Positions 8,061 to 25,378 of a stretch of DNA of 64,000 nt are shown here, piece by piece (position 1 is the stretch's first letter; each line of letters opens with the position of its first letter). The notes beneath the pieces were generated by a model, which was given only the letters and a program-made list of their open reading frames with translations, made no database searches and was not told the DNA's origin. This DNA is from an uncultured bacterium (GTDB taxonomy: Bacteria; Patescibacteriota; Dojkabacteria; J137): NCBI GenBank assembly GCA_963700155.1, contig OY969472.1, forward strand, positions 66,058 through 130,057. The letters run 5' to 3'. The position numbers were made by a program, and so were the translations under genes.

Positions 8061-8077
8061 TATTAAAATTTACTCTT

Positions 8078-9058: not shown

Positions 9059-9061
9059 AAA

Positions 9062-10498: not shown

Positions 10499-10651
10499 AA
10501 TGTAAACTTAACAATTACCAGATTATACACTGTTAGTTATTTAATTTCAGTTCCAATGATTATTAATGCATTAATGTTGAATATACTTATAAATACAATA
10601 TATAGAAGGCACTTATCTGTGTACTTTTTGTGTATTTTACGTGCTTTCTAT

Positions 10652-11296: not shown

Positions 11297-11368
11297 AGCT
11301 TTATATCTAAATAATAATCTCTAGATTATACTAATTATTGTGATAGAATAAAGTGCACTTAAACTATT

Positions 11369-13063
11369 GTGAGAATGATACAGAAAAAAAGATTCTTAAC
11401 TAAGAAAAAACTTTTACTATTTTTTATTCTTCTTGTCGGAGGTTATATTTTGATAAGCAATAATCTTTCAGCACAGGTTGATGTACCCGACTCTCCAACA
11501 GTAAGTAGTGTTCAAGATCAATGGTGGAACGATGAATATTCTTATAGAAAAAAGATTGATGCTGGTGATTCCACAACAGCAGTATTTGAAATAAATCATG
11601 CAGAAATGGTTGTTGAAGGAAAATCAAATTCTGATGGGAATGATTTGAAAGTTGTAGCTCAAAAAGATAATGAATCATCAATTGTTAGTATTAATTTATC
11701 AAAACCAGATGTAACTAATACCAAAATTGAATTTACATTACTTAAAGATAACTCATATAAATATTATCTATATTATGGGAATAGATATCCTGAACAGACA
11801 AAAGTTTTAGGAGCTACTAAGATTTCTCTGAATACAAATTCCTCACTTGAACTTGAAGAGTCACCTATTTTTACCATAAATACTCAAAAAAAGTGGGTTC
11901 TAAAAGACTCAGATACAAAAAGTATTCTCTTAAGTTTACAAACAAAAGAAAGGATTGAAAATGCATCTGATGTTTATGCTGTAATAAACAATAATACAGA
12001 TAACAAAATTAAATCTATTTATAAAGATGGAATAATCACTGTTCCAAGCGGAGAAGTAAAGGTTGGAAGAGATAAAGTTTATATTCTCATAAAATATAAC
12101 GGAACAACATTTAGAACTAATACTACAATCTTTAATTATTCTTACCCCTTATATGTTGCATGGACAATAGACTGGGAAGGAACAATTCCTGATTATAAAT
12201 ATTTAGGCGATATGGAGAATATTTCAGAAGACTTTTCTATCCCAATGACTCAATACTTTAATCCTAGAATCTATATTAATTTAAATATTACTGATGAGCA
12301 AAGAAAGTATGTTTCAGATTGGTTAAAGAAAAGATATGTTTTAGGTGACGATATTGGGATGCACATGCATATGCAGCATGATATGGTTGAAGAAGCTGGT
12401 GTTAAAGCAAAATATGATGCACAATCTTGGGATAATGGTGTTAGTGGTTATGATACTCCAAGTACAGATTATACTCATGATGAATATCTGAAAATTTTAG
12501 ATTGGGGGAAAAATGAATTAAAGACTCAACTCTCAAGATTTTCGAATTTTGATATCCCAGACCTTCAAGGTTATCGAGCTGGAGGATGGTTTGCTAATCT
12601 TGATACCCTAAGAGCAATACAAGATGCTGGATTTATTTATGATACTTCCGGAAGATCTCCTTTACCACTTGGAGCAAATAAAATTACTCAAACCTGGAAT
12701 TTAAAAACAACAAGTCAGCCATATTATATTTCCAAAGATGATCAAAATTCAGACACTCCTCCAGTAATGGCTTTAAAAGAACTTCCTGACAATGGAATGG
12801 ATTCATATTGGTCAGCTGCTGAGGAATTAATTCAAAATTTTTATTCAAATTATAATCCTGGTGATGTTCTGACTAGTGATAAGATTGTTGTATTTCTGTC
12901 TCACCCAGACTGGTTTTATATAGATGAGCCTAAACTTACAAAATTATTTACTGAGATAAGCAAATATAAAAATGAATATGATATGGGGCCAGTAAAATTT
13001 GTGACTTTGAGAAACTACCTTGCTAAATCTGATTATATAAATAGTTTGGATAAATCAAATTAG
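11369..13063 (+). CDS. secreted protein, possibly CE4 polysaccharide-deacetylase-like
   Basis: N-terminal TM/signal; weak resemblance to CE4 motifs (TIDWEG, GMHMHMQHD, YRAGGW...IQDAGFIYD). Confidence 0.3.
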   Translation: MRMIQKKRFLTKKKLLLFFILLVGGYILISNNLSAQVDVPDSPTVSSVQDQWWNDEYSYRKKIDAGDSTTAVFEINHAEMVVEGKSNSDGNDLKVVAQKDNESSIVSINLSKPDVTNTKIEFTLLKDNSYKYYLYYGNRYPEQTKVLGATKISLNTNSSLELEESPIFTINTQKKWVLKDSDTKSILLSLQTKERIENASDVYAVINNNTDNKIKSIYKDGIITVPSGEVKVGRDKVYILIKYNGTTFRTNTTIFNYSYPLYVAWTIDWEGTIPDYKYLGDMENISEDFSIPMTQYFNPRIYINLNITDEQRKYVSDWLKKRYVLGDDIGMHMHMQHDMVEEAGVKAKYDAQSWDNGVSGYDTPSTDYTHDEYLKILDWGKNELKTQLSRFSNFDIPDLQGYRAGGWFANLDTLRAIQDAGFIYDTSGRSPLPLGANKITQTWNLKTTSQPYYISKDDQNSDTPPVMALKELPDNGMDSYWSAAEELIQNFYSNYNPGDVLTSDKIVVFLSHPDWFYIDEPKLTKLFTEISKYKNEYDMGPVKFVTLRNYLAKSDYINSLDKSN

Positions 13064-13478: not shown

Positions 13479-14927
13479 CTAATCAAACCTTGGGAAAAGA
13501 ATTATAGTTTCTTGTTCATCCAAAGCATTTTTTGCCTTCACAGAACTATCAGGAATTATTGGAGAATATAACTCTATCACTTTATCTAAGAGATATCCTA
13601 AACTATAAAGAGTTGTTACAATTTTGTTTTCATCTTTTTCAAGCCAAGGTTTGTTTTCATCAATATATTTATTTCCATACGAACATAAATCATTCACAAC
13701 TTGTATAGCTTCAAATATCTGATAATTTTCAAAATACTCTTCAAATCTTTTAACTTCTTTATCTACTATTATTTTTAGTTCATCATCAACTGACTCTAAA
13801 TCAGTTAATTTTATTGTTTTCCTATTTGCTAGATGAATTACCCTATTCAAAAGATTTCCAAAATTATTTCCTAAATCTGAATTATATTTAGTTTCTAATC
13901 TTTCAAAATTAAAATCACCATCATTTCCTAATTGAAATTCTGAAAGTAATGCATATCTGACTGCATCAACAGTATATTTTTGTGATAATTCAACAGGATC
14001 AATTGCATTATTATTACTCTTCCCTATTTTCTGTCCATTTACTGTAAAGAATCCTTGAACGATTACATTTTGCGGTAGCTCATACCCTGCAGACTTTAGC
14101 ATTGCTGGCCATAAAATAGCATGGAATTTAATTATATCTTTACCAACTAAATGATGCGCTGCCGGCCAGAACTTTTTATAGTAATCTTTTGCTTTAAATT
14201 CTGGAAACTGAAGCACCGACAAATAATTCGGCAGCGCATCATACCAGACATAAATAGTTTGTGATTCATCAAACGGAACTTTCACACCCCAAGAAACATT
14301 TGCTCTTGTAACAGGAATATCTTTTAAGCCTGCTTTGATTAAACCATGAACATAAGAAGACCATTTCTCAGGTTTAACAAATTCGGGATTTTCTTCATAA
14401 TACTTTAAAAGCCAATCCTGATACTTAGAAAGTTTAAAATAATAATTTTTTTCTTTTGTATATACTGGTGTTTTTGTAGGATGGTTAGGACATTTTCCAT
14501 CAATCAAATCATCTTCATTATAATAGGCTTCACAACTTTCACAATACCATCCTTCATATTCACCTTCATAAATATCACCGTTATCATAAGATTTTTGGAT
14601 TAATTCTTGAGCAAATTTTTCATGTTCAGGATCAGTTGTTCTTACAAAATAGTCGTTTGAGATTTTTAATTCTTCCCAAATTTTTTGAAATTCAGCTGCA
14701 TAATAATCAACATATTCTTTTGGTGACTGGTTGTTTTCTTTTGCTTTTTTTGCAATATTTCCACCATGTTCGTCTAAACCGGTTAAAAAGAAAACATTTT
14801 CATTTCCTAATTTGTTTCGATAGTATCTTGCAATTGAGTCTGCAATAAAGACGTCATAAGCTGTTCCTATGTGAGGAAGTCCTGTTGGATAAAATATCGG
14901 TGTTGTAATGTAAAAGTTATCGTTCAT
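13479..14927 (-). CDS. metG: methionyl-tRNA synthetase (minimal form without C-terminal tRNA-binding domain)
   Basis: PHIGTAYDVFIADSIARYYR (HIGH region), zinc knuckle CESCEAY...CPNH, KIGKS (KMSKS variant). Confidence 0.9.
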   Translation of the reverse strand: MNDNFYITTPIFYPTGLPHIGTAYDVFIADSIARYYRNKLGNENVFFLTGLDEHGGNIAKKAKENNQSPKEYVDYYAAEFQKIWEELKISNDYFVRTTDPEHEKFAQELIQKSYDNGDIYEGEYEGWYCESCEAYYNEDDLIDGKCPNHPTKTPVYTKEKNYYFKLSKYQDWLLKYYEENPEFVKPEKWSSYVHGLIKAGLKDIPVTRANVSWGVKVPFDESQTIYVWYDALPNYLSVLQFPEFKAKDYYKKFWPAAHHLVGKDIIKFHAILWPAMLKSAGYELPQNVIVQGFFTVNGQKIGKSNNNAIDPVELSQKYTVDAVRYALLSEFQLGNDGDFNFERLETKYNSDLGNNFGNLLNRVIHLANRKTIKLTDLESVDDELKIIVDKEVKRFEEYFENYQIFEAIQVVNDLCSYGNKYIDENKPWLEKDENKIVTTLYSLGYLLDKVIELYSPIIPDSSVKAKNALDEQETIILFPRFD

Positions 14928-14970
14928 TTTTAAAGTAAGTAAAATTTAATATTAAAATAATCTTATAAAT

Positions 14971-15396
14971 TCATAATTCTTTGTCCGAGGTAATTCTAGT
15001 AATAATTGATAGACCTTTATCTGGATCTTCTTGATATATTTTAAATGTAGCACCATTCCATCTAAAATAAAAATCGTTACTTTTATTTGAAGCTATCCTT
15101 CTTACCAAATATAACCATTCATTATAACTATAAATTGATAAATCTACTTCTGCATTACTTGCATTAGATAATTGGATATTACATATCTCAAGCGGCATTT
15201 GAACTGATCCGGTACCTCTAATCCGATAAGAACATCGATATACTTTATCAAATAAAATATAAAAAGGTGGATTATATTTATTAATATCACTATTAGAAAT
15301 GTTCTGCTGTTCTAATGCAGAGATATATTCATTAATAATTCTTATTGTTGATTCTATATCTACCTCAAAGTTACTCCAATTGTTAATGTTTTTCAT
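14971..15396 (-). CDS. hypothetical protein
   Basis: the ORF-track N-terminus translates the terminator T-run from a TTG start; a start at the internal Met (MKNINNW) is more plausible. Confidence 0.3.
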   Translation of the reverse strand: MKNINNWSNFEVDIESTIRIINEYISALEQQNISNSDINKYNPPFYILFDKVYRCSYRIRGTGSVQMPLEICNIQLSNASNAEVDLSIYSYNEWLYLVRRIASNKSNDFYFRWNGATFKIYQEDPDKGLSIITRITSDKEL

Positions 15397-15451
15397 ATTT
15401 TTATTATATGATTTACTAAAAAGTTTTGAATAATAAAAGTAAAAGTGAATA

Positions 15452-15479
15452 TAAAAAAATCCCAATTTCTTGGGATTTA
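15452..15479 (-). terminator. rho-independent terminator on the minus strand between the island and the host gene
   Basis: AAATCCCAA-TTTC-TTGGGATTT stem followed by T7 on the minus strand. Confidence 0.45.
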
Positions 15480-15634
15480 AGATTCATATAGGTATGAATA
15501 TAAATCCCTTAGTTGGGAACAGACATCATAATAAAGAATTTTTGTGATTTAGTAATATTCATATTAAGAATTTTATCAGATGAAATTGTTATAGACAAAT
15601 TTTATTAGCTATTTTAAAGATTCAATAGCGAAAA

Positions 15635-15652
15635 GGGGGATTTTCATCCCCC
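15635..15652 (-). terminator. GC hairpin GGGGGA-TTTTCA-TCCCCC after the stop of the truncated paralog, marking the left edge of the island
   Basis: 6-bp GC stem, then UUUUCG on the minus strand. Confidence 0.4.
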
Positions 15653-15661
15653 TTTTCTAAA

Positions 15662-15871
15662 CTATCCTTTCTGAAGAGTTTCCTCTTCACTAATGATTTC
15701 AACAGGCCCATCTGCTGATTCGAGGAACCTCTTAGGTTTCTCAGGTAGATGATTTTTCCTCTTCAACTCGGATTCGTCTTCAGCAAGATTGTCCCAAAAA
15801 GTACTTACCTTTAGTTTTACCCATTCAACCAGAAGTTGATAGAGCAAATTAGGGACTATAATGCAGACCAC
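15662..15871 (-). pseudogene. truncated copy of the island membrane-protein family (C-terminal 69 aa only)
   Basis: aligns with the C-terminal tails of 16097-16621 and 17853-18329 (EKPKRFLESADGPVEII versus EETPKNDLVWHEESLEII); the upstream reading frame runs about 20 further codons, then stops where the sequence becomes AT-rich. Confidence 0.45.
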
Positions 15872-15948
15872 TGTTATAAGCAGCGGAAGTTCAGGGAAAA
15901 CCTTACCTACCGCATAAATAATGAGATTAAATTACTGTTAAGAGCATA

Positions 15949-15974
15949 AAGAATGGTTTAGTTTTAAAAGAACT
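15949..15974 (-). promoter_or_regulatory. island promoter-like box, copy a (plus strand AGAATGGTTTAGTTTTAAAAGAAC)
   Basis: one of seven copies of TTTTAAAGAAC, each 40-200 nt upstream of a minus-strand unit. Confidence 0.4.
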
Positions 15975-16010
15975 TTAGTACTAAATAATTTTTTACATTA
16001 GCACTTAACT

Positions 16011-16073
16011 TTTACCGTTTCGTCTTACCAATTACTTGGAAGACTCTTCAGTCCAGCTTCGCTGGAGACGGTC
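16011..16073 (-). ncRNA. hammerhead ribozyme, type III topology (HHR1)
   Basis: on the minus strand: GACCG-GUC | UCCAGC-GAA-GCUGGA | CUGAAGA | GUCUUCC-AAGUAAUU-GGUAAGAC | GAAA | CGGU; all core positions present. Confidence 0.7.
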
Positions 16074-16074
16074 A

Positions 16075-16091
16075 GGGGGATTTTATCCCCC
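16075..16091 (-). other. GC hairpin GGGGGA-TTTTA-TCCCCC between the stop codon of the 174-aa gene and HHR1
   Basis: 6-bp stem; no U-run; abuts the 5' arm of hammerhead stem III. Confidence 0.4.
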
Positions 16092-16096
16092 TTTCC

Positions 16097-16621
16097 CTAA
16101 ACCATACCTTTCTCCAATCTTTCGTCGATTGTGGCGTCAACCACGAGGAGACTCTCTCCATTCCAATGGAGATCTTCGTTCTTCGGCTTCTCTTCGTTCT
16201 TATCCTTCTCAGGTTCCATTGGGACAAGATATTTCCCAACCCAATGGTAGCGTACTGGTTGATTCTCGTTTTTCTTTTTTTCCTCGTTTCCAGAATTCTC
16301 CCACTTCAATACCCAGGTTAAGATAAGCCGTGGTCCATCAATTACCAAGTTATAGCACAGCAATACCATCACCATTGGTAATAAATCAAACATCCAATGA
16401 TTAAGGTATAGGTCGAGTAGGTGTATTACGAACACCATCATAGGGATACCTATCTTGAGCCATCCCCACACATCTTCTCTTGTTTCATTTTTAAACCAGA
16501 AATCGGTGAAAAAATCGCCAAATAGAACGCCAAAAACGATAAAAAAAAGGACAGCCAGTATCACGTAGATTACTTTCCCGACGACTACAACAACGACTTT
16601 GGCAATACGTTTTACAGACAC
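16097..16621 (-). CDS. island membrane protein family member (174 aa), 2-3 TM helices plus K/E-rich C-terminal tail
   Basis: GTG start 7 nt after AGGAGGG; GC-rich codon use; paralog of 17853-18329. Confidence 0.5.
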   Translation of the reverse strand: MSVKRIAKVVVVVVGKVIYVILAVLFFIVFGVLFGDFFTDFWFKNETREDVWGWLKIGIPMMVFVIHLLDLYLNHWMFDLLPMVMVLLCYNLVIDGPRLILTWVLKWENSGNEEKKKNENQPVRYHWVGKYLVPMEPEKDKNEEKPKNEDLHWNGESLLVVDATIDERLEKGMV

Positions 16622-16661
16622 TTTGATTCCCTCCTTTGCGGGTTGAATATCTTGAGAAATT

Positions 16662-16686
16662 AGAATGGTTTAGATTTTAAAAGAAC
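16662..16686 (-). promoter_or_regulatory. island promoter-like box, copy b (AGAATGGTTTAGATTTTAAAAGAAC)
   Basis: near-identical to copies a and d; 41 nt upstream of the 16621 start. Confidence 0.4.
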
Positions 16687-16942
16687 AATAAGTATTAAAT
16701 AAAAAATTTTACATTAATACTAATTCTTATTTTATTATATCATAAAAAATATATAATGTATATATCGTGTATTAATTAGAGTTTATCAAATGTTTTAGGA
16801 GAAACAAATATCTGCCCTCAAACAACATCCCGATAAAATCAAGATCCCTACCGTGTTTAAGGGCATATATTTACCTACGAATTATACCATTCAGAGTGTA
16901 TTTTAATATTTTTGGACTGTAGGGAAGTCCAATATTATTTTA

Positions 16943-17003
16943 CAAACCTTTCGTCTTACCAAATATGGAAGACTCATCAGTCCCGATTATCGGGAGAGGT
17001 TTT
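16943..17003 (-). ncRNA. hammerhead ribozyme, type III topology (HHR2)
   Basis: on the minus strand: AAACC-CUC | UCCCG-AUAA-UCGGGA | CUGAUGA | GUCUUCC-AUAUUU-GGUAAGAC | GAAA | GGUUU. Confidence 0.7.
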
Positions 17004-17009
17004 GGCGGG

Positions 17010-17387
17010 ATTCATATAGACTTTAACTAAAGTATCCCGCCAATTTACGCCACAGAGTGAATCATTTTGATATCTCCTCTAGAATCGAACATCTGGGCAA
17101 AAGCCCTTTGATCATTCACTTTAGCTAGTGAGACTAAAGTACTCAATAACTCCTTCGATGTTCCATCTTAGGTAGTTGATCAGGTCAAGTTACTGACCCT
17201 ATTGAGTTTGCACTAATATTTTTAGTACTATCGCATCGGCCCCAGAGAATTAGCTAACTCCGTACCGACTTTGCGCACAGGCAGTTTGTGATTTAACACA
17301 GCAGAGGGCTACTAACCACGATTTGAGTAACTAACCCAAACCAACATCTGCACTTATACCCTGTGAATTTTGTAATTCCCTCGAGAA
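17010..17387 (-). ncRNA. ORF-free structured segment between the 90-aa gene and HHR2 (3' UTR or independent ncRNA)
   Basis: GC-rich, no ORF of 60 aa or more; several hairpins (GGGC-AAAA-GCCC, GGTCA-AGTTAC-TGACC, ACTTTAG...CTAAAGT). Confidence 0.3.
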
Positions 17388-17660
17388 TTATTTCAAAGTT
17401 AACTCCTTGTATCTACGGATTCCCTGCACAACGCCTCTATAGAAGCAATCTCCAGCGGGATACCACTGGAGTGAGTCCTGTTCACGCATCTCAATCTTGA
17501 GATACGTTTCGAGTCCCCCATGGTCCTCCACGATGACCAGGAATACTACATGACCCCGTGGGTCTTCAACCAGAAACTCGCAGTATTGACCTGCGAGGTC
17601 AAGGTCGAGCTTTTGAAGCTCGACTGCCGCCGCAATTTCGAACCTTGAGTATTTATTCAT
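17388..17660 (-). CDS. island soluble protein, 90 aa, unknown function
   Basis: ATG 5 nt after GGAGGAG; GC-rich; no motif recognised. Confidence 0.45.
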   Translation of the reverse strand: MNKYSRFEIAAAVELQKLDLDLAGQYCEFLVEDPRGHVVFLVIVEDHGGLETYLKIEMREQDSLQWYPAGDCFYRGVVQGIRRYKELTLK

Positions 17661-17681
17661 CTTCTCCTCCACAGAGAACTA

Positions 17682-17697
17682 CATGCCAAATGGCATG
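17682..17697 (-). promoter_or_regulatory. palindrome CATGCC-AAAT-GGCATG in the 5' leader of the 90-aa gene
   Basis: 6-7 bp inverted repeat about 25 nt upstream of the start; same element upstream of two other island genes. Confidence 0.45.
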
Positions 17698-17750
17698 AGC
17701 TTATAGACATACATCTACAAACTGCTGCCATCTAACAATTCGATAGTATA

Positions 17751-17763
17751 AATTTTTAAAGAC
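17751..17763 (-). promoter_or_regulatory. island promoter-like box, copy c (AATTTTTAAAGAC)
   Basis: immediately downstream (minus sense) of HHR3; 91 nt upstream of the 17660 start. Confidence 0.35.
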
Positions 17764-17821
17764 CCAGTTTCGTCTTACCAAAATTTGGAAGACTCATCAG
17801 TCAGGCTAAGCCTGAGACTGT
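17763..17821 (-). ncRNA. hammerhead ribozyme, type III topology (HHR3)
   Basis: on the minus strand: CACAG-GUC | UCAGGC-UUA-GCCUGA | CUGAUGA | GUCUUCC-AAAUUUU-GGUAAGAC | GAAA | CUGGG. Confidence 0.7.
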
Positions 17822-17842
17822 GGAGAGGAATTTCACCTCTCC
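17822..17842 (-). other. GC hairpin GGAGAGG-AATTTCA-CCTCTCC between the stop codon of the 158-aa gene and HHR3
   Basis: 7-bp stem abutting the 5' arm of hammerhead stem III. Confidence 0.4.
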
Positions 17843-17852
17843 GATTTTGACT

Positions 17853-18329
17853 TTATTTCTTTTTTCTAAACCATCCTTTCTGAGGATCTTCGTCCTCCTC
17901 TATGATCTCAAGCGACTCTTCGTGCCACACAAGATCATTTTTGGGGGTTTCTTCGTTTTTCTTTTTCTTCTCTTTCTCCTCTTTATCCTCTGGAATCTTC
18001 TCCCAGAATCTAAAAAGAAGAATCCTGACTCCATCAACCAGGAGTTGACCTACCATGTAGGTCGCTAACATGATTATTAAAGCTTGGATTACGACTTGCA
18101 CTAAGTCATAATTCATGGGATTAATTGAATTCGTGAACATTATTATTGCTATTGCCCCGATAATAAGGGGTAATACCAATTTGAAAAAAAAGATTGAGGA
18201 GGTATTGCCGTGTAGCATCCACCAGTCCCAATCACCAAAGAATAAAACAGAAAATACCCTCCCCAAATTCTTCTTGGAAAGTCTGATATAGTTGTAAAAT
18301 TTTCGTAGATCCCGACGAGTGATCATCAT
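17853..18329 (-). CDS. island membrane protein family member (158 aa), 3 TM helices plus K/E-rich C-terminal tail (holin-like topology)
   Basis: paralog of 16097-16621 (shared LFGD...W, LLVDGVRIL, EETPKNDLVWHEESL motifs); SD AGGGAG. Confidence 0.5.
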   Translation of the reverse strand: MMITRRDLRKFYNYIRLSKKNLGRVFSVLFFGDWDWWMLHGNTSSIFFFKLVLPLIIGAIAIIMFTNSINPMNYDLVQVVIQALIIMLATYMVGQLLVDGVRILLFRFWEKIPEDKEEKEKKKKNEETPKNDLVWHEESLEIIEEDEDPQKGWFRKKK

Positions 18330-18413
18330 TTACTCCCTAGTAGAAAAATTGAACGAATTGTCATAATCGACATTCTAAGAACTTTGAGTACTCAAAATGC
18401 CGACTATGACTTA

Positions 18414-18437
18414 AGATGGTCTAGATTTTTAAAGAAC
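18414..18437 (-). promoter_or_regulatory. island promoter-like box, copy d (AGATGGTCTAGATTTTTAAAGAAC)
   Basis: 85 nt upstream of the 18329 start. Confidence 0.4.
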
Positions 18438-18472
18438 TTTATATTAATCCCAATGTAAAAGCATAAAAGGTT

Positions 18473-18496
18473 TCTCCCCTGATTTCTCAGGGGAGA
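18473..18496 (-). terminator. perfect hairpin TCTCCCCTGA-TTTC-TCAGGGGAGA downstream of the 337-aa gene
   Basis: 10-bp stem; U-rich tract follows on the minus strand. Confidence 0.4.
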
Positions 18497-18685
18497 GATA
18501 ACGAAATTTCAGACTTTAGTCTATCTCCAATTGGAGATTGTACCTGCACAAGGCAGGATTTTTCTGATCTATTCTTTTCTCAGGTTTATAACGGGTCTGC
18601 TAACCGTACAGTTCAGCCTGGTAAGGTTAGACTAAAACTGTCCCTAAGCTTTATTCAAGTTTAGGTTTGAGATATGAAATTTCAC

Positions 18686-19699
18686 CTAACGTCGATAGAT
18701 CATCCCAGACCCAAAGGCTTTGGGTGGGGATATCTTCATCCCCATTCGAGCGAATACACTTTCAAGGCGTGTTCGCTCTGACTCAAGTTTGAAGTTATCT
18801 CCCCCGGTGGGGAAGAACACAAAAACCTGAGTTTTGGGGTTTTGTTCAAGGATGACACGAATATCATCCTCTCCCGCTCCAACTTGAAGCGGAAACGACG
18901 TTGAAAACGGCTGGGTTTCCACCCAGCCGATAATTTCTGAGAGCGGCTTCAAGCCGCTCGAAGTGTAATCAGGGAGAGTGATGCGAACACCCTCTCCCTC
19001 CGTATAAATTGTCCAGATTCGTCCCTTCTCGCGGAGGGAAAACAGCTTTGCCCAAATCTGGGAATCGCTGCTCTGAGCTAGGACACTGGCGACGTACGAG
19101 TCCAACTCGTAGCCTCCAATGTCCATCCCAACCATACCCGCCGTGTAAGCGAATGCCCCCGCAGCTTGGCGGAGATAAGCGCCGGACACAATGAATGTGT
19201 CCGGCTCCCGTTCGAACCACTCAATGTGGTCGAACACGAACGGGGTCACGGGATCAACCGTGACCTTCAAAAAAGCTTGGTCGTGCTCAACCTGAGCACG
19301 ACCGTTTGCAAACCGGACAGCTTCAGCAGCGATTTTCATCGCTGCCTCCACCGCCCAGTTCGAGTCAGGGTCGTCCGCCCAGCGGGTGACCCATTCTTTC
19401 GAAATCCCAGCCTGGCGTTCGCCAGGCACGGAAACAATAACCCCCCAGCGGAGCTGGGAAGTATTGAGCCATTGCGGCATCGCTGCCGCAACGACTCCCG
19501 GGGTATTTTGCATGACAACCGCCTCGGCAGAGGCGGTAATTGCTTGCTGCTCGATCTCGGTCAACTGACCGATAACTTCAGCTTTGTTGAGCGCGAACGT
19601 AACGTTCGCGCTTCCAACAACTTCGACTTGGATGTGGCCGAAGTCGGTCGCATGACGACCGACAACAAAGAACTTTTTGGTTTGAATTTCATTTGCCAT
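18686..19699 (-). CDS. island 337-aa protein, unknown function (strongly GC-biased codons)
   Basis: ATG preceded by GGGGAGGAG; no catalytic or structural motif recognised from sequence alone. Confidence 0.5.
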   Translation of the reverse strand: MANEIQTKKFFVVGRHATDFGHIQVEVVGSANVTFALNKAEVIGQLTEIEQQAITASAEAVVMQNTPGVVAAAMPQWLNTSQLRWGVIVSVPGERQAGISKEWVTRWADDPDSNWAVEAAMKIAAEAVRFANGRAQVEHDQAFLKVTVDPVTPFVFDHIEWFEREPDTFIVSGAYLRQAAGAFAYTAGMVGMDIGGYELDSYVASVLAQSSDSQIWAKLFSLREKGRIWTIYTEGEGVRITLPDYTSSGLKPLSEIIGWVETQPFSTSFPLQVGAGEDDIRVILEQNPKTQVFVFFPTGGDNFKLESERTRLESVFARMGMKISPPKAFGSGMIYRR

Positions 19700-19710
19700 T
19701 TTGAATCTCC

Positions 19711-19725
19711 TCCCCTTCGTGGGGA
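19711..19725 (-). promoter_or_regulatory. 5-bp GC hairpin overlapping the SD of the 337-aa gene
   Basis: minus strand UCCCC-ACGAA-GGGGA; the 3' arm is part of the GGGGAGGAG SD. Confidence 0.3.
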
Positions 19726-19741
19726 CTTAAAAGAACAGATT

Positions 19742-19759
19742 TCATGCCCATTGGCATGA
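19742..19759 (-). promoter_or_regulatory. palindrome TCATGCC-CATT-GGCATGA in the leader of the 337-aa gene
   Basis: 7-bp inverted repeat; a related TGCCA-A-TGGCA core at 19791-19801. Confidence 0.45.
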
Positions 19760-19900
19760 GTCAGAAAACAAATTTTTGCTTTCAAGCTACTGCCAATGGC
19801 AATCTTCTCTTTTTAGAGTTAGACATTGAAAATTTCGTTTGCAGTTATACTGCTACATTGAAATTAATATTTTATGAAGTTATTAAAATTAATTAATAAC

Positions 19901-19916
19901 TTGTTTTTTAAAGAAC
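19901..19916 (-). promoter_or_regulatory. island promoter-like box, copy e (TTGTTTTTTAAAGAAC)
   Basis: about 200 nt upstream of the 19699 start. Confidence 0.35.
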
Positions 19917-20113
19917 ATCTTCTTAAAAGAAGAGATTAATTTAAAAAGACTAAAATACCCTCTTATTTCAAGGTTCGAGAGGTGGTCTTTAGCCACCCCT
20001 CATTTGTATTCTACTTGATTACTAAAAAAACTTAAGTTTTCAAGTAGATAGACTTTAGACATTTTTCACTCGCACCTATTTCTAGGTTGCCTCTTTGTGA
20101 GTTTTTTGGTGGG

Positions 20114-20527
20114 TTAAAAAGATTCCACCTCATGAACTCCCCCAAGGGGGCTGCTAACCAGCCGGGTCGCCCCGACTGACTCAGCGATCCGATTCAGCCG
20201 AGGACTGACCTCGGCAATCCTCAAAAGGAGGTCACTCTTTTTGGGATCCTCCACAGGAGTATCCCAAAGTTCTTTTGCCTCCTCTAAGGTGTAGGGCATA
20301 CCGCCCTCCACCCTAATTTCGACGCCCACCCACTGGGCGTCGACCTCGAGGTATTTAACCTCGGCTTTGAATCCTTCCTTTAGGAAGGATTGCAAAACCT
20401 GTTCTTTCTTCGCCTGCATACCTTGCAGGCGAACGATCATACCCTCCAAGGTTTTTACACCTTCGAGAAAATCCCCCACCCTAACGGTGGGGTATAGACC
20501 GTCATCAAAGTGCATTGTTACTTTCAT
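20114..20527 (-). CDS. island soluble protein, 137 aa, unknown function
   Basis: ATG 5 nt after GGAGGAG; the ORF-track start at 20566 is the ATG inside the leader palindrome and is unlikely. Confidence 0.45.
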   Translation of the reverse strand: MKVTMHFDDGLYPTVRVGDFLEGVKTLEGMIVRLQGMQAKKEQVLQSFLKEGFKAEVKYLEVDAQWVGVEIRVEGGMPYTLEEAKELWDTPVEDPKKSDLLLRIAEVSPRLNRIAESVGATRLVSSPLGGVHEVESF

Positions 20528-20549
20528 TTTTCTCCTCCTCGGAGAATAT

Positions 20550-20568
20550 TCATGCCCGAATGGCATGA
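20550..20568 (-). promoter_or_regulatory. palindrome TCATGCC-CGAAT-GGCATGA in the leader of the 137-aa gene
   Basis: 7-bp inverted repeat; this leader is about 75% identical over 105 nt to the 90-aa gene leader. Confidence 0.45.
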
Positions 20569-20620
20569 GTATATAGACACAAATCTACATACTACTACCA
20601 TTCAGCAATTTGAAAGTACA

Positions 20621-20634
20621 AGTTTTTAAAGAAC
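20621..20634 (-). promoter_or_regulatory. island promoter-like box, copy f (AGTTTTTAAAGAAC)
   Basis: 94 nt upstream of the 20527 start. Confidence 0.4.
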
Positions 20635-20639
20635 ACTGC

Positions 20640-21350
20640 TTTCACAGAGGTTGATAAACTTTTTGATTTACCAACCTCTATTAAAGCTTTTAAGGACTGC
20701 CCTGCTCTCGCGGGGCTTTTGTCATTCGACTTACTTTAAGACTTTTCTCTTACACCTCGGCCACAACGGCTTGGAGGTAAATTTTGTAAATGCCGAAAAA
20801 CTCGGAATTTACTATTTAATATTTGTCTGCATTATATGCAGCACTTTGCTTCGGACAACTAATGTTACCCCCGACCATAATTGCATCTCTCCTATCACTT
20901 TTCGGAGAGAGGATTGAAAACTTTTTAAAATTCTCAATCCTCTCCCCGAAAATCGGGGAAAGGAAAGTCTTTGCTCAAGTGATAGTAACTTGAGACTACT
21001 ATCTTTTTAACCGGTTAACTGTACCTCGCTTTTACGAGACCACCAGTAATCTAACCGATCATCCAGATAATCAAGTATTTAAATACTTAACTACCTTGGT
21101 AGGGTAAGGTAACAAATATATAAATATTTGATTACCTAAATAGCTAGTTCGTACTCACATTTAAGTGAACCACCGAATTTAGCATTAAGCTTTTGTTTAA
21201 TGGAACAAAGCCTAAAAAACAAAAAAAGCTTAGCGTGACTTAAGATAATTCAATCTTAAACCTTGCTAAGCTTTCTAAAAAAACATATTATATTTTTAAT
21301 ATTAATATGTTCAAGCCAATAAGGTAGGATTTATTATCTTGAGCAAATAT
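20640..21350 (-). ncRNA. ORF-free, hairpin-dense segment of about 700 nt; candidate structured RNA with its own promoter box
   Basis: at least 10 stems of 6-9 bp (AGAGGTTG..CAACCTCT, TCTCTCC..GGAGAGA, GAGGATTGA..TCAATCCTC, CCCCGA..TCGGGG, CTCAAGT..ACTTGAG, TTAACCGGTTAA, AAGTATTTAAATACTT, GCTTAGC..GCTAAGC); box g at its upstream end; the only ORF (88 aa, plus strand) looks spurious. Confidence 0.3.
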
Positions 21351-21351
21351 T

Positions 21352-21366
21352 AAGTTTTAAAAGAGC
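21352..21366 (-). promoter_or_regulatory. island promoter-like box, copy g (AAGTTTTAAAAGAGC), no ORF downstream
   Basis: marks the right edge of the island; followed on the minus strand by the structured ORF-free segment. Confidence 0.3.
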
Positions 21367-21563
21367 ATTTATTACTTTAAAGATATTACTATTATATACC
21401 TAGATATATAATATGTCAATACATGGCAACAAATTTTATATATTTTGACATATCACCTATTCACCCTATCAATAAGGCTATCAACAAATCGACGCTGCAT
21501 TATTTACTATTTTTTCACCAATTAGTGATAGTTTTTATCAAAAATGAGTTAGAATAAATACAT

Positions 21564-23711
21564 ATGATACAAAAAAATAACAAACATCAACCTGATGAAA
21601 ATATTGAAACTCAGGTTGATTTAAAAAGAGAGTTGTTTAGTCTTATAAAATCCTCCATTCTTGCAAGAACTAAAGCTAATAGAATGGACTCATATGATAG
21701 TCAAGAAATTTTAAATGCAATTTTTCACCAATTTCCTCAGCTCAGAAGTGAACAATTGCTCCATAATCATCTTGAATGGAATATAAATGAAGTTGATTGG
21801 AACTCTTCAGATTACGTAAATTACTTTTATGGGAATCCTGAAAATTTAGATACAGTTGTTAAATTTATTACTGATAATATTTGGTCTATTCCATTTTTAA
21901 CACCTAATCTGATAAATGAAGCGAAGAAAGAAGATGTTATACCATCAACTATACAAATCTTATATTCAATAATAGAAAAACTCTTACAGCAAAGAAACAT
22001 TGAATCCGCAAAAACATTAAGCAAGAAAATTCTAGTTAATATAAATCTGCTAGTTGAGCTAGGTGGTCATATATGGGTAAATAAATTATTAGAAGCGATT
22101 TCACTACAGAATCATGATCTTTGGGTAAATATATACGGTATGAAAGAGGAAGAATATCAATATTATTTAGATTATCAGAAAAAGATTGAGGGTATTTATG
22201 AATTCAATTCACAAATTCGAAAGCTTGCAAAAGGTAGAATCAACAACTATTCAAGAGATGAAAATGGAGAATTGATTACAACACGCACCGATCATGAAAG
22301 CGAAATTTGGAGAATTGCTGGTAGGAATATACCTTTTATACAACCAGATGATGTACTAGAAAAAGATATCTCAGAAATATGGAGAAATTACGAACAAGAA
22401 CTAATTAATTATATTACTAAAATAAATAAAAGTGATCCTGGGTGGCAATTAATTATAACCGAAATAAATAAACTGGTAGAATATTTAGGAGATAAGGACA
22501 TCAGAGGTCTACACTTAGAATATCCTTTTTGTTTAAATACATTAAGGCAAAATATATTATCTGAATTTAAACGAAAGATTTATTACGACACAAAAACTCT
22601 ACCTGGGAAAACTCCAGCTCCTAAAGACGATAGAGGAAAATCTACGAATTTTCTTGCACAAAATTCAAGCCAAAATGTTTTTATAAGCTATCTGGCATTG
22701 CGACGCCTTATGTTCCCAGACGAAGATTTAGAAAATATAGATGTAAATTCCCCTCGAGCTCATTTAGATTTAGATAGCGTTTATGAAATAGCAAATTTTG
22801 AAGAATATTCAGAAAGCAAACAACTTGAAAGTACACTATATAGAAGAAATATGATATTAGAAATATTAAAAGAATTAAACCTGAATACCACTCAAATCTT
22901 TGAACTAGGCAGTGGGAGTGGTTGGCTTACAAAACAATTACACGATTCCCTACCTGAAGTCCCTATACACAGTCTGGAAATAAGTACTGACCAAATAAAT
23001 GCTGCAAAAAGATTTTTGAAAGATGCAATAGATAAAGAAAATATAACAATTTCCCAACTATCTTGGGACGAATTATCTAGTTGGGTTCCCTTTATAAATA
23101 GAAACAAGACAATTCCAGCAGTATTACTTTGGATGGGAAGAAGTGCTACACATGAAGAGAGTCAAGATTCCTTTATAGCAACGTTACTTAACTTTTCTAA
23201 GTTTATGGAAAATGGAGATTTTCTAATAATGGATATGCCTGATCCAAATACAGGAACATATATAAAACTAAGACAAAATATGGTTAATGCGTTCAATAAA
23301 ATTGGGGAAAATTTAGACCCAATTGTACACATCGAACTAGAAGATTTTGACTATTTGGTTGATTCACCTGATGGTGAACATAATTATAATAGATTTACAC
23401 CTTCCTATCAGAAACTATTGAAAATTTTTGAATTTATAGGATTAGAACCTCAAATTGTTACATTACCGGAGAATATTGGGAAATCAAACTTTAGGAACCT
23501 TGAACAAACTGATAAGATGGATAAATGCATTTTAGAAAGAGTAAATTCAACAGAATATACTAAACGATCAGATCATTCTAACGGATTAACTGATGAAGAT
23601 TATAATAATCGTAGAAATATGGTTTTTGTATTAAAAAAGACAAGAAATGTAGATAGTTTTATATTAAACAATAAGACAGCATTATTACAAACACCTGGAA
23701 GAAGATTATAA
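21564..23711 (+). CDS. multidomain protein with C-terminal class I SAM-dependent methyltransferase fold
   Basis: motif I ELGSGSGW in the C-terminal third; N-terminal 400 aa unassigned. Confidence 0.45.
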   Translation: MIQKNNKHQPDENIETQVDLKRELFSLIKSSILARTKANRMDSYDSQEILNAIFHQFPQLRSEQLLHNHLEWNINEVDWNSSDYVNYFYGNPENLDTVVKFITDNIWSIPFLTPNLINEAKKEDVIPSTIQILYSIIEKLLQQRNIESAKTLSKKILVNINLLVELGGHIWVNKLLEAISLQNHDLWVNIYGMKEEEYQYYLDYQKKIEGIYEFNSQIRKLAKGRINNYSRDENGELITTRTDHESEIWRIAGRNIPFIQPDDVLEKDISEIWRNYEQELINYITKINKSDPGWQLIITEINKLVEYLGDKDIRGLHLEYPFCLNTLRQNILSEFKRKIYYDTKTLPGKTPAPKDDRGKSTNFLAQNSSQNVFISYLALRRLMFPDEDLENIDVNSPRAHLDLDSVYEIANFEEYSESKQLESTLYRRNMILEILKELNLNTTQIFELGSGSGWLTKQLHDSLPEVPIHSLEISTDQINAAKRFLKDAIDKENITISQLSWDELSSWVPFINRNKTIPAVLLWMGRSATHEESQDSFIATLLNFSKFMENGDFLIMDMPDPNTGTYIKLRQNMVNAFNKIGENLDPIVHIELEDFDYLVDSPDGEHNYNRFTPSYQKLLKIFEFIGLEPQIVTLPENIGKSNFRNLEQTDKMDKCILERVNSTEYTKRSDHSNGLTDEDYNNRRNMVFVLKKTRNVDSFILNNKTALLQTPGRRL

Positions 23712-23728
23712 ATTTTTAGATAAACAAA

Positions 23729-24487
23729 ATGATTAATACAACAGATATTGGAATAACTGATAAAGCTTTTGAACTTTACTCAATACTTTTAAAAAATGGG
23801 CTCTCCACTGTTGGCTACTTAATAAAACAGTCTGGTTATAAAAGAGCAACAGTCTATAAAAACTTATATTCCTTAGAAAGTATCGGATTAATTACAAAAA
23901 TTGATGTTAAAAAAGTAATCAATTTTAAAGCAGAACCTCCCAAAAAATTACTTGAATTAGCAGAAAAAAAATATATTGACACAAGACGTGTCTTATCTGA
24001 TATTGAAGGTCTTTTACCTGATTTAAATTCTGATTATATTTTATCAACTGAAAAACCAATAGTTACAACATTTGAAGGTGTAAAAGGATTAAAAAAGATA
24101 TATGAAGATATGCTTTCCGAAAAAAAGGAAATATTTGCAATTTTACAACCAAGTATTGTTGAACCGGAATTATTTAACTGGCTAAATAAAAATTTTTTTA
24201 AAAGAAGAAAAAAATTAGGAATAAGAGTAAATGCATTAGTATCAACTGGTAGTTGGTCCACTGACTATGTAAAACAAACAGAAAAAGATGATATTGGTAA
24301 AACTAGGTTAGTTTCTAGTCAAAAATATCCTTTCAAACTTGAGATGGATATTTTTGGCGACAAGGTGGCTTTCATTAACTACAAAAAGGGCGAGCCTCTA
24401 ATTGGGATTATTATCCACAATCCTTTTATTGCAAAAACAATGAAAGCCACCTTTGATTTAGCTTGGTTAGGAGCAGCAGATAGTTAA
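23729..24487 (+). CDS. TrmB-like HTH transcriptional regulator
   Basis: N-terminal winged-helix segment (GYKRATVYKNLYSLESIGLI) plus a C-terminal effector-like domain. Confidence 0.45.
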   Translation: MINTTDIGITDKAFELYSILLKNGLSTVGYLIKQSGYKRATVYKNLYSLESIGLITKIDVKKVINFKAEPPKKLLELAEKKYIDTRRVLSDIEGLLPDLNSDYILSTEKPIVTTFEGVKGLKKIYEDMLSEKKEIFAILQPSIVEPELFNWLNKNFFKRRKKLGIRVNALVSTGSWSTDYVKQTEKDDIGKTRLVSSQKYPFKLEMDIFGDKVAFINYKKGEPLIGIIIHNPFIAKTMKATFDLAWLGAADS

Positions 24488-24507
24488 ATAGTTAGAAAAG
24501 AATTTAA

Positions 24508-24849
24508 TTACTGTTCATTAAGAGATAATACTGTAGGTTTATTATAACCTTTAACCTCATAAATAACCCCATTCCATTCAGTATAAACAATCCCGATATG
24601 ATCTTTTGTAAATCTATCCCTTGATATTTCACCCATAAATTTAAACCAAAGATAATTCTCAACATTTCTTTTATCATTTTTAATATACTCAGAATCTGGA
24701 ATATACCTTGTAGCAAATGTTCTACCATCACCTATAACTAACCATTTCAACAGTGAGTTAATATCTTTAAGAAAATATAGGGAATTAAGTTCACCTTCCC
24801 AATCGGGAGTATGCTCTTCTAACTCATAAATAGATTCTAAAGAAGACAT
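24508..24849 (-). CDS. hypothetical protein
   Basis: 113-aa ORF, no motif. Confidence 0.3.
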   Translation of the reverse strand: MSSLESIYELEEHTPDWEGELNSLYFLKDINSLLKWLVIGDGRTFATRYIPDSEYIKNDKRNVENYLWFKFMGEISRDRFTKDHIGIVYTEWNGVIYEVKGYNKPTVLSLNEQ

Positions 24850-24910
24850 ATCTTTAAATTAAAAGTTTCGCAGATATTAACACTTTATTTTGACAGTTGT
24901 AAAGTCTAGA

Positions 24911-25339
24911 TTACTTTTTCCAGTCACATTTTTGCTGAACACATCTACATGAATATCCTAAATCTTTTGGCAAAGGTTGTGTTGGAGCAACACAAACTGA
25001 AACCGCTGGTTCATCTGTTCCACTTCCACAAATTTCAGAATTACATCCCATTACAGTACAATCAGAATCGATATTACAGGCTCCTTTTGTAGAACTCCCA
25101 TAGTATTCAGGAGTAGAAACAGGATTTTCTTGATTATAACTATTTCCATCTATATCGCACTTAACTGGCGAAGTAGCTATAATTGTTCCTCCAGCAGTTA
25201 CACACTCATCAAAGGTGTTTATTGAATTATTAGCTACCTCTTCTTTTTGATTTGCAAAATAAAGTACTACAATAGAAAAAAGAGTTCCTAAGATTATTAA
25301 TATAAAAAATATTAATAAAAATCTTTTATTTTCATCCAT
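24911..25339 (-). CDS. membrane-anchored cysteine-rich secreted protein
   Basis: N-terminal TM helix; 11 Cys in the C-terminal 90 aa (CDIDGNSY...CNIDSDCTVMGCNSEICGSG...CRCVQQKCDW). Confidence 0.35.
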   Translation of the reverse strand: MDENKRFLLIFFILIILGTLFSIVVLYFANQKEEVANNSINTFDECVTAGGTIIATSPVKCDIDGNSYNQENPVSTPEYYGSSTKGACNIDSDCTVMGCNSEICGSGTDEPAVSVCVAPTQPLPKDLGYSCRCVQQKCDWKK

Positions 25340-25378
25340 CTCATTAAAATTAATTTATAAACTTACTATCATTTTATA

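Follow-up and report, generated by a model that had tools for sequence, protein, structure and literature searches.

Tandem hammerhead ribozymes that flank single genes have been described in prophages, in a study (Perreault et al. 2011, PMC3088659) that also showed cleavage in vitro for constructs from three bacteria. This is the nearest described arrangement to the locus analyzed here, an island of about 5.8 kb (15612-21419) with about seven same-strand cassettes on the minus strand of a 64,000-nt stretch (the window; contig OY969472.1, positions 66,058 to 130,057) of the assembly GCA_963700155.1, which comes from an uncultured bacterium of the Dojkabacteria, within the Candidate Phyla Radiation (CPR). 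In both arrangements, several ribozymes of the same orientation stand between individual small genes, which vary in identity, and a long transcript is presumably cleaved by them into RNAs the length of a gene. However, the island has neither a prophage nor an integrase context and belongs to a CPR-type host, its hammerhead carries a conserved extended stem II and scores below the Rfam threshold, and its genes and untranslated regions (UTRs) are hyper-structured when compared with the phage arrays tested. Moreover, in the CPR family to which the island belongs, a box follows the ribozyme and conserved non-coding frames surround unrelated open reading frames (ORFs), features that also set it apart from the prophage arrays. 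The island is probably a set of ribozyme-delimited, structure-stabilized mRNA cassettes and a member of a CPR (Patescibacteria-type) family of hammerhead-terminated, hyper-structured elements.

In synthetic ribozyme insulators such as RiboJ and in ribozyme-processed operons, the hammerhead trims the upstream context and leaves a defined, structured 5' end, so that expression becomes independent of its surroundings. RiboJ-type insulators are engineered parts, whereas the island seems to be a natural counterpart, which adds a 3' helix before the cut and pairing of the whole message. The elements of the island are given below in the order of transcription, where C0 to C6 denote the leader and the cassettes, and HHR1 to HHR3 the hammerhead ribozymes.

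21391-21419, minus strand: sigma-70 consensus promoter TTGACA-17-TATAAT, pointing into the island; the sole 12/12 match in 15300-21700.
20640-21390, minus strand: C0, an ORF-free, hairpin-rich leader RNA of about 750 nt (GC 33%), with boxes at 21376-21384 and 21356-21364 at its start.
20114-20635, minus strand: C1, with a box (20624-20632), a 77-nt leader, a palindrome (20551-20567) and a 137-aa ORF (20527-20114), which becomes 150 aa if the start is taken at 20566.
18473-19914, minus strand: C2, with a box (19906-19914), a palindrome in the leader (19743-19758), a 337-aa ORF (19699-18686) and a 3' UTR that has a terminator-like hairpin at its end (18496-18473).
17764-18435, minus strand: C3, with a box (18427-18435), a 158-aa membrane-protein ORF (18329-17853), a 3' hairpin (17842-17822) and HHR1.
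17821-17764, minus strand: HHR1, type III, detected with Rfam and with our own model (73.2 bits); predicted cut 17816/17815.
16945-17762, minus strand: C4, with a box (17754-17762), a palindrome in the leader (17682-17697), a 90-aa ORF (17660-17388; 94 aa from a GTG at 17672) and, in its 3' part, a structured 3' UTR of 384 nt (17387-17004) followed by HHR2.
17001-16945, minus strand: HHR2, type III, detected with Rfam and with our own model (78.8 bits); predicted cut 16996/16995.
16685-16944, minus strand: AT-rich spacer (GC 0.26).
16762-16734, minus strand: internal promoter-like site TATACA-17-TATAAT with a TG extension, a consensus match only.
16014-16684, minus strand: C5, with a box (16676-16684), a 174-aa membrane-protein ORF (16621-16097), a 3' hairpin and HHR3.
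16072-16014, minus strand: HHR3, type III, detected with Rfam and with our own model (73.3 bits); predicted cut 16067/16066.
15612-15971, minus strand: C6, with a box (15963-15971), a decayed third copy of the membrane-protein gene (69-aa ORF, 15871-15662), an intrinsic terminator found by a terminator scan (hairpin and U-run, 15652-15636) and a terminal box (15612-15620).

All three hammerheads lie in one orientation; the 90-aa and 174-aa genes each have one on either side, and the 158-aa gene has one after it. Their catalytic core is intact in every copy (CUGA(U/A)GA ... CGAAA, with U16.1 and C17; HHR3 reads CUGAAGA, with an A at position 7 that the consensus permits), and stem II has a conserved extended form, GUCUUCCA...UGGUAAGAC, with a bulged U. 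Against the Rfam family RF00008 they score 38.3, 34.3 and 32.3 bits (E 1e-5 to 5e-4) and do not reach the gathering score of 48.5, because stem II carries an extension of 12-14 nt; the gathering score is an annotation cut-off and not a biochemical criterion. A covariance model built from 13 copies, the three of the window included and 10 from related loci, finds exactly three copies in the window, with 73-79 bits. In the alignment of the 13 copies, 98.7% of the cells are paired, compensatory changes occur in 12 of the 19 pairs and the covariation score is 0.674, compared with 0.21 for shuffles and 0.03-0.09 for controls in which the partners were shifted by 1-3 columns. The alignment bears out the layout of three helices surrounding the core, of which stem III is open and stems I and II end in loops. 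Judged from core and covariation, the three hammerheads, which an earlier note on this DNA had already proposed, are genuine type III ribozymes. Moreover, a helix ends 4-6 nt 5' of the predicted cleavage site in all 13 ribozymes: in 10 of them it is a local hairpin of 5-10 bp that abuts the 5' strand of stem III (10 bp in HHR2), and the remaining three have instead a 16-bp helix that pairs the 5' end of the cassette with its 3' end. The stem III sequences of the window (CAGU/ACUG, AACCU/AGGUU and ACCGU/ACGGU) all differ and are not interchangeable. At the gathering threshold, Rfam returns only two tRNAs over the window, and up to E 10 it returns nothing credible besides the three hammerheads, either here or in the related loci. 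Decayed hammerheads had been suspected by eye at about 20040-19975 and 20690-20640, where our own model finds none, even at E = 10. Far from the island, at 46301-46355 (minus strand), a weak match to the hammerhead model (20.9 bits, E 0.0025) lies in sequence of 20% GC; CUGAUGA and GAAA are present, stem II is poor, and it is probably a chance match.

The messages between the ribozymes are predicted to fold to an unusual degree, coding sequences included. When the codons were permuted within each gene, keeping both the protein and the codon usage, the folding z score was -10.8 for the 137-aa gene, -10.0 and -8.0 for the first and second halves of the 337-aa gene, -4.8 for the 158-aa gene, -3.7 for the 90-aa gene and -2.2 for the 174-aa gene, against +1.4 to -1.1 for four host genes. 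The 137-aa coding sequence also reaches z = -10.4 with dinucleotide shuffles, and its predicted fold is a row of hairpins of 7-11 bp. The two ORF-free structured stretches pointed out in the earlier note are also supported, namely C0 (20640-21392), with a minimum free energy (MFE) of -248.9 kcal/mol and z = -16.2 against dinucleotide shuffles, and the 3' UTR at 17004-17387, which lies inside the C4 unit (z = -7.3 with this UTR included). C0, which matches no Rfam family, folds better in the sense than in the antisense direction (-248.9 versus -214.5 kcal/mol), with 26 GU pairs versus 13. In general, sense folds are 12-25% better than antisense folds and have about twice as many GU pairs, and this bias, together with the GU excess, points to selection on RNA. 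In addition, GC at third codon positions (GC3) is 0.67-0.69 where the position is paired and 0.33-0.37 where it is unpaired. Since the GC excess sits in paired positions, RNA-structure selection explains much of the compositional contrast with the host; much of the GC island thus appears to be a footprint of pairing, and GC richness largely its cost.

The transcript from C1 to C4 (3.6 kb) has z = -29 with mononucleotide shuffles, compared with -1.9 for a host control, although whole-sequence shuffling of a compositionally patchy sequence inflates z, an inflation from which the per-gene synonymous shuffles are free. A 2026 preprint gives z of -19 for MS2 RNA, -5 for 23S rRNA and about -1 for E. 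coli mRNA (PMC13082091). The genomes of single-stranded RNA phages (Leviviricetes) resemble the island in that coding RNA is laid out in trains of hairpins, with -19 for MS2 set beside the inflated -29 of the island's patchy sequence (PMC13082091). However, the island is encoded in DNA and has sigma-70 promoters as well as Shine-Dalgarno sites, and no homologue of a Leviviricetes replicase, maturation or coat protein was found in it with Pfam and PHROG. In related arrays from CPR bacteria, which are treated below, the cargo ORFs have z of -7.3 and -5.9 in one array (L009) and of -8.8 and -4.6 in another (L007), with neighbors at about 0. Conversely, the hammerhead-flanked genes of seven IMG/VR contigs range from +0.75 to -3.2, the same as their controls, and hyper-structure is no general property of hammerhead-flanked phage genes.

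With respect to composition, the window has 29.4% GC outside the island and the island (15631-21390) a mean of 41.1%, and the maximum over 300-nt windows, 0.59, lies inside the 337-aa gene. The earlier note had described an island of about 50% GC in a host below 30%; the contrast with the host holds, whereas the figure of about 50% suits the 137-, 337- and 90-aa genes (0.48-0.54) and not the island as a whole, since the membrane-protein genes have 0.38-0.41 and the ORF-free parts 0.26-0.41. It was also right that all six ORFs lie on the minus strand with a codon usage unlike that of the flanks (GC3 of 0.39-0.59 versus 0.15-0.23 in 14 flanking genes) and that AT-rich spacers interrupt the GC-rich blocks (GC 0.27-0.28, at 16.6-16.9 kb and 19.75-20.05 kb). 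ERR11571143, assembled independently in Logan, contains 11,257 nt that correspond to window positions 14464-25720 at 99.98% identity and cover both junctions, which makes an assembly chimera, one of the refutations that the note had envisaged, very unlikely; the island is real and no artefact. The functional unit reaches past the GC borders, its limits being the promoter at 21419 and the last box at 15612. The similar strings noticed at the two boundaries are present (TTTAAAGAT, plus strand, 15613-21 and 21376-84), the right-hand coordinate in the note having been off by 10 nt. Only two other spots of the window, 3701-4100 and 6301-6700, have a GC of 0.40-0.45 and a 200-nt MFE below -60 kcal/mol, and both fall within ordinary long ORFs.

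The box TCTTTWAAA has eight copies on the minus strand of the island among 26 matches in the window on both strands, and the palindrome CATGCC-N4-5-GGCATG has three copies, all in island leaders, where 0 are expected by chance, so the repeated box and the palindromic leader elements reported previously are both upheld. The leaders of C1 and C4 are 81% identical and share a consensus fold, a 23-bp hairpin with two compensatory changes, the 3' arm of which is the palindrome; a second, small hairpin is predicted to sequester the Shine-Dalgarno site. A GGAGG site stands 6-9 nt upstream of the start in every island ORF, and the repeats D4, D5 and D6 link C6 to C3 and C5. In the predicted ensemble, the accessibility of the box is moderately high, with six of the eight copies in the top 15%. 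Candidate roles for the box are those of a standby site for ribosomes, an RNase site, an internal start and a scar left by recombination. In the membrane-protein cassettes, a motif just 3' of the box pairs with the stop-codon region (duplex z of -2.7, -1.8 and -1.5), and this nucleotide motif is kept though the stop codon shifts, which suggests a constraint at the RNA level; pairing between the 5' and 3' ends of C1, C2 and C4 is no better than in shuffles. Messages of the hok type, from type I toxin-antitoxin systems, are similar in their end-to-end pairing, their compact and stable message and their membrane protein. However, the island proteins have 158-174 aa and not fewer than 60, no antisense RNA gene was identified in the island, and the 3' end would be made by a ribozyme and not by trimming.

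Related loci were sought by a pattern scan for the conserved long stem II (CTGANGAGTCTTCCA...GGTAAGACGAAA) in GTDB, with one genome per species, and in JGI metagenome contigs. Six loci were found, two of them in CPR metagenome-assembled genomes (MAGs; candidate division WWE3 and Saccharibacteria), one in an unclassified 'bacterium' MAG and three in metagenome contigs, while none of the 2.9 million IMG/VR viral contigs contains a long-stem-II hammerhead. Their units have a common layout, consisting of a leader, a Shine-Dalgarno site, a small GC-rich ORF, a structured 3' UTR, a hairpin and a hammerhead. L007 (Saccharibacteria) and L009 each contain an array of three to four hammerheads, with small ORFs rich in GC and long leader hairpins, and in both a box, (A)GTTC(C/T)TT, directly follows stem III. 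In L007, the island has 45-55% GC within flanking DNA of about 30%, and stem III is identical in all four hammerheads. L005, L006, L008 and L010 are single cassettes. Promoters of the sigma-70 type, read by eye and not from a promoter scan, are a perfect TTGACA-17-TATAAT upstream of the cassette in L008 and the near-consensus TTGACA-17-TATGCT in L006 and TTGACA-16-TATCCT in L009; the L005 contig stops before any promoter is visible.

The frames of L005, L006 and L008 are about 90% identical over a 5' UTR of about 170 nt and over about 300 nt of 3' UTR and ribozyme. This identity extends as far as codon 3 (ATG GCT AAC/ACC) and is regained about 10 nt past the stop, the ORFs inside the common frame being unrelated, and 16 nt at the 5' end of the frame pair with 16 nt directly before stem III of the ribozyme. 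The cassettes thus appear modular, because conserved non-coding frames hold unrelated ORFs. The UTR frame was not found in the 2.9 million viral contigs, and nucleotide similarity between the UTRs of the window and the other loci is confined to the ribozymes. The leader palindrome, used as a key to IMG/VR, gave 76 matches, about the chance estimate for 15 specified bases, and 0 with a hammerhead. Among the elements whose joint occurrence elsewhere was in question, the hammerhead subtype and the box recur in other CPR contigs. Several observations on these loci stand on their own. L009 has a second type of cassette end (1865-1935, 2810-2850, 4235-4275 and 4790-4835), a hairpin YTTATTGRGYYCAT...GGATYCATAGAG followed by a GTTCTTTG box, which occupies the place of the hammerhead in other cassettes and has no Rfam match. 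In L006 (3720-3793, minus strand), a gap of about 25 nt separates the end of the single cassette from a tRNA gene of the other strand, and the L007 and L008 loci likewise contain tRNA genes.

As for the encoded proteins, no family match was obtained for any of them with Pfam, PHROG and PADLOC, and the same libraries revealed no integrase, transposase, reverse transcriptase (RT) or Cas protein in the island. The absence of integrase, transposase, RT and CRISPR components in the earlier note is thereby confirmed, and its statement that no motif of a known family could be placed in the five intact proteins agrees with the libraries and needs amending for the 337-aa protein, residues 1-165 of which are a conserved domain (the N-domain). 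A word-indexed search recovered 14 homologues of the N-domain, and an exhaustive profile search showed an unnamed family of 281 clusters, most members of which are stand-alone proteins of about 150 aa; its predicted fold is confident. Three homologues lie in prophage-like regions, by genes for SSB, the beta-clamp, a serine recombinase and Mom, on contigs of 50-64% GC, and neither tblastn against 50,697 phage records nor a search of IMG/VR seeded with a pattern found a match to the domain. With 28% identity (E 5e-7), the proteins of 158 and 174 aa are paralogues that have diverged; each has charged tails and 2-3 hydrophobic spans. The 69-aa ORF represents what is left of a third copy, its decayed tail, so the duplicated membrane-protein family with one decayed member stands as described. 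Among 5.8 billion proteins, the 137-aa protein matches only itself and the 158-aa protein has no relative outside the island; the 90-aa ORF was compared with Pfam, PHROG and PADLOC only. A single-sequence AlphaFold2 (AF2) model of the 137-aa protein has a pLDDT of 55, of low confidence, and does not show a coat layout. Every island ORF has a three-base periodicity with GC1 > GC3 > GC2, a coding signal.

In the related loci, the cargo proteins of L008 and L009 have weak PADLOC matches to Csx16 (E 0.005 and 0.04), with neither a Pfam match nor a sequence match in the PDB, and may resemble the DUF1874/AcrIII-1 (B116) ring nucleases. An identity as Csx3, considered for the cargo of L005, found no support in Pfam. 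Cold-shock-domain proteins occur in or beside cassettes of L005 (about 150-1, minus strand) and of L117 (2965-3870, plus strand), a locus that encodes a close relative of the 337-aa N-domain and has a box-like GCACTTTAAAAA at its start. Their N-termini are similar (MASKIFRWNSERGFGF... and MPKIFNYRPERGFGF...), and such proteins would fit RNAs that need melting, which is a correlation only. The 3' UTRs after two N-domain homologues, at about 860-960 in L116 and about 860-960 in L117, share a conserved element, CTCGCTTTCGCGAGA ... GCCTTA..GGTCGGGA ... TTGCCTTC.CAAAC.

If the island consists of ribozyme-delimited, structure-stabilized mRNA cassettes, transcription of the minus strand would start from the sigma-70 promoter (21419-21391), with weaker starts possible in the AT-rich spacers. 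By established hammerhead chemistry, the ribozymes would cut the nascent RNA after C17816, C16996 and C16067. The upstream product would end in a stable helix plus 4-6 nt, with a 2',3'-cyclic phosphate, and the downstream product would begin with a 5'-OH paired in stem I, followed by a single-stranded box, the leader hairpin, the Shine-Dalgarno site and the ORF. Units that have no ribozyme would end in a hairpin and U-run terminator (C6) or in a terminator-like hairpin (C2). Both ends of a unit and most of its interior, the coding sequence included, would be base-paired, and the outcome could be long-lived, nuclease-resistant and mutually insulated messages for small accessory proteins, namely two membrane paralogues, a 337-aa protein with a rare domain and two orphans.

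Several points weigh against this reading. Every RNA property on which it draws is a predicted one. Three of the six internal cassette junctions have no ribozyme, and our own model finds no decayed copies there; the box is left with several candidate roles and an only moderately high predicted accessibility; and the pairing of 5' and 3' ends is significant in the membrane-protein cassettes only, and weakly. The 137-, 90- and 158-aa ORFs have no detectable relatives outside the genome, and since relatives are lacking, the translation of two orphans is argued solely from periodicity and Shine-Dalgarno sites. Heavy pairing should also hinder ribosomes, and the structure may serve some end other than a stable mRNA. 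In addition, a JGI contig (L002, from 3300003465; GC 64%, prophage-like) has a block of six same-strand genes (8001-12213, plus strand) with z of -3 to -15, between flanks (a serine recombinase, an IS66 transposase and others) with z of about 0. The block includes P0006, a homologue of the 337-aa N-domain, and has no hammerhead, which shows that hyper-structure and ribozymes are separable traits and that hyper-structured gene blocks also exist outside CPR genomes.

Other explanations account for part of these data. The island could be the remnant of a prophage or another integrated element from a GC-richer donor, with ordinary phage tandem hammerheads and a GC content that reflects foreign origin. 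Tandem hammerheads around single genes are indeed documented in prophages (PMC3088659), many hammerhead arrays were found in IMG/VR contigs, homologues of the 337-aa N-domain occur in prophage-like regions on contigs of 50-64% GC, and GC3 in the island is about three-fold off that of the host. Nevertheless, such a remnant seems unlikely, as neither the island nor its immediate surroundings carry phage, integrase or transposase genes, the neighbors being CysRS, MetRS and DnaE; searches of 2.9 million viral contigs found neither the hammerhead subtype nor the UTR frame nor the N-domain, and the N-domain is likewise without a match in 50,697 phage records; the genes of phage arrays are not hyper-structured, their z of +0.75 to -3.2 equaling that of controls; and the GC excess is concentrated at paired positions. 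The earlier suggestion of an acquired or selfish cassette system fares accordingly: the cassette reading stands and recurs in other CPR contigs, whereas the acquired or selfish part finds no support, neither mobility genes nor a demonstrable target-site duplication having been found. It is more doubtful still that the units are templates for circular or autonomous RNAs akin to viroids, retrozymes or obelisks, excised and ligated by RtcB or by the ribozyme into ultrastable circles that may be translated, packaged or spread via an RNA intermediate. Retrozymes, viroid-like RNAs and Obelisks do share with these loci the type III hammerheads, units of 0.7-0.9 kb and heavy structure; the units of the window measure 820 and 929 nt and those of L007 about 740-850 nt, the 5'-OH and cyclic-phosphate ends are by established chemistry those that RtcB joins, and a 16-bp helix unites the cassette ends beside the cleavage site in L005, L006 and L008. 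Moreover, the one stem III across the four L007 hammerheads is what circularization of monomers requires, so that the hammerheads of L007, interchangeable as in retrozymes, would allow it, and the transcript z of -29, inflated by patchiness, exceeds the -19 reported for MS2 RNA (PMC13082091). In the window, however, the three stem III sequences differ and cannot be interchanged; single cassettes have a ribozyme at the 3' end only and a promoter-defined 5' end; neither an RT, an RNA-dependent RNA polymerase (RdRp) nor a coat-like protein was detected with Pfam and PHROG; features of the long terminal repeat, primer-binding site or polypurine tract type (LTR/PBS/PPT) are absent; and the DNA repeat unit runs from the box to the end of the ribozyme and not from cut site to cut site.

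An integron-like array of DNA cassettes, in which the box is a recombination site and the hairpins are folded single-stranded DNA substrates, is very improbable in view of the absence of an integrase or any other recombinase. It would fit the small co-oriented ORFs of unassigned function behind one strong promoter, the short conserved box at every junction and both ends, and the modular cassettes with swapped ORFs and one decayed copy, traits also known from integrons and from clusters of attC sites lacking an integron integrase (CALINs). However, the island has neither IntI nor an attC architecture; its junction element is a 9-12 nt box, (A)GTTCTTTWAAA, in which GTTCTTT, read directly, misfits the attC core GTTRRRY and lacks an inverse counterpart; the hairpins occupy the coding sequences and not the junctions; and the GU excess of the sense strand points to pairing at the RNA and not at the DNA level. 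Just as hard to credit is the view that the island is mostly non-coding structured RNA, with orphan ORFs as accidents of stop-free, GC-rich hairpin trains. Three-base GC periodicity in every ORF, a GGAGG at the proper spacing before each start, the protein-level similarity of the 158- and 174-aa proteins with conserved hydrophobic spans, and the N-domain of the 337-aa protein, a real family with a confident fold that is nevertheless equally structured in its RNA, all speak for translation. What the non-coding view has in its favor is the lack of relatives of the 137-aa ORF anywhere, and of the 158-aa ORF outside the island, among 5.8 billion proteins, the lack of Pfam, PHROG or PADLOC matches for the 90-aa ORF, the AF2 pLDDT of only 55 for the 137-aa protein, long ORFs on the opposite strand too, and an RNA motif conserved at the ends of the membrane-protein genes with stops placed differently in the three copies.

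The surroundings of the island are those of an ordinary chromosome, with CysRS, MetRS, DnaE and two tRNAs among the genes of the window and, over the island and about 10 kb to each side of it, no phage or integrase family. Two genes lie just beyond the promoter:

21564-23711, plus strand: gene for a 715-aa protein, divergent from the island promoter and co-oriented with the TrmB-family gene.
23729-24487, plus strand: gene for a TrmB-family regulator (Pfam TrmB, E = 1e-8).

The 715-aa protein has only weak matches to S-adenosylmethionine (SAM) methyltransferases (E about 0.01, residues 430-505). The L007 and L009 arrays also adjoin TrmB-family genes, the three proteins being 24-27% identical, and this association of arrays with TrmB is a lead that is suggestive only. 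Further along, DNA polymerase III alpha is divided between two overlapping ORFs on the minus strand (25379-28964), with the PHP domain at 27948-28964 and the remainder at 25379-28048, and a frameshift, an error of sequencing or a truly split gene could account for this.

The combination of hyper-folded coding RNA with ribozyme-punctuated cassettes, present in other CPR bacteria as well, appears to be novel, as it was not found described in the literature searched, and no paper that connects hammerheads with CPR, Patescibacteria or Saccharibacteria turned up in full-text searches. Natural bacterial hammerheads have no agreed function, and this locus and its relatives offer a compact design rule for them, with a stabilizing helix directly before the cut, a paired 5' end after it and a near-fully paired message between. 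Standard annotation sees nothing of this, because the ribozymes are sub-threshold in Rfam and the proteins are orphans. The island elements are also candidate natural parts for stable mRNAs, and DNA-encoded RNAs that fold like RNA-phage genomes could give rise to false positives or unexplained hits in structure-based virus discovery.

For the genomes of these bacteria, a sharp GC island in an AT-rich background can reflect selection for RNA folding and not only foreign origin, which would lead to a reinterpretation of 'genomic islands' and 'GC-rich intergenic regions' in CPR genomes. A bolder idea, which seems rather unlikely at present, is that the CPR islands are a new class of element made of DNA-encoded, ribozyme-released, ultrastable RNA modules, in which the non-coding frames and not the ORFs are what is selected. 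If this were true, the class would be a cellular counterpart of RNA-phage or viroid-like RNAs, some unclassified 'ultrastable' metatranscriptome contigs would derive from such loci, and the module RNAs would be built to persist, circularize, be packaged or pass between cells, for instance between an episymbiont and its host.

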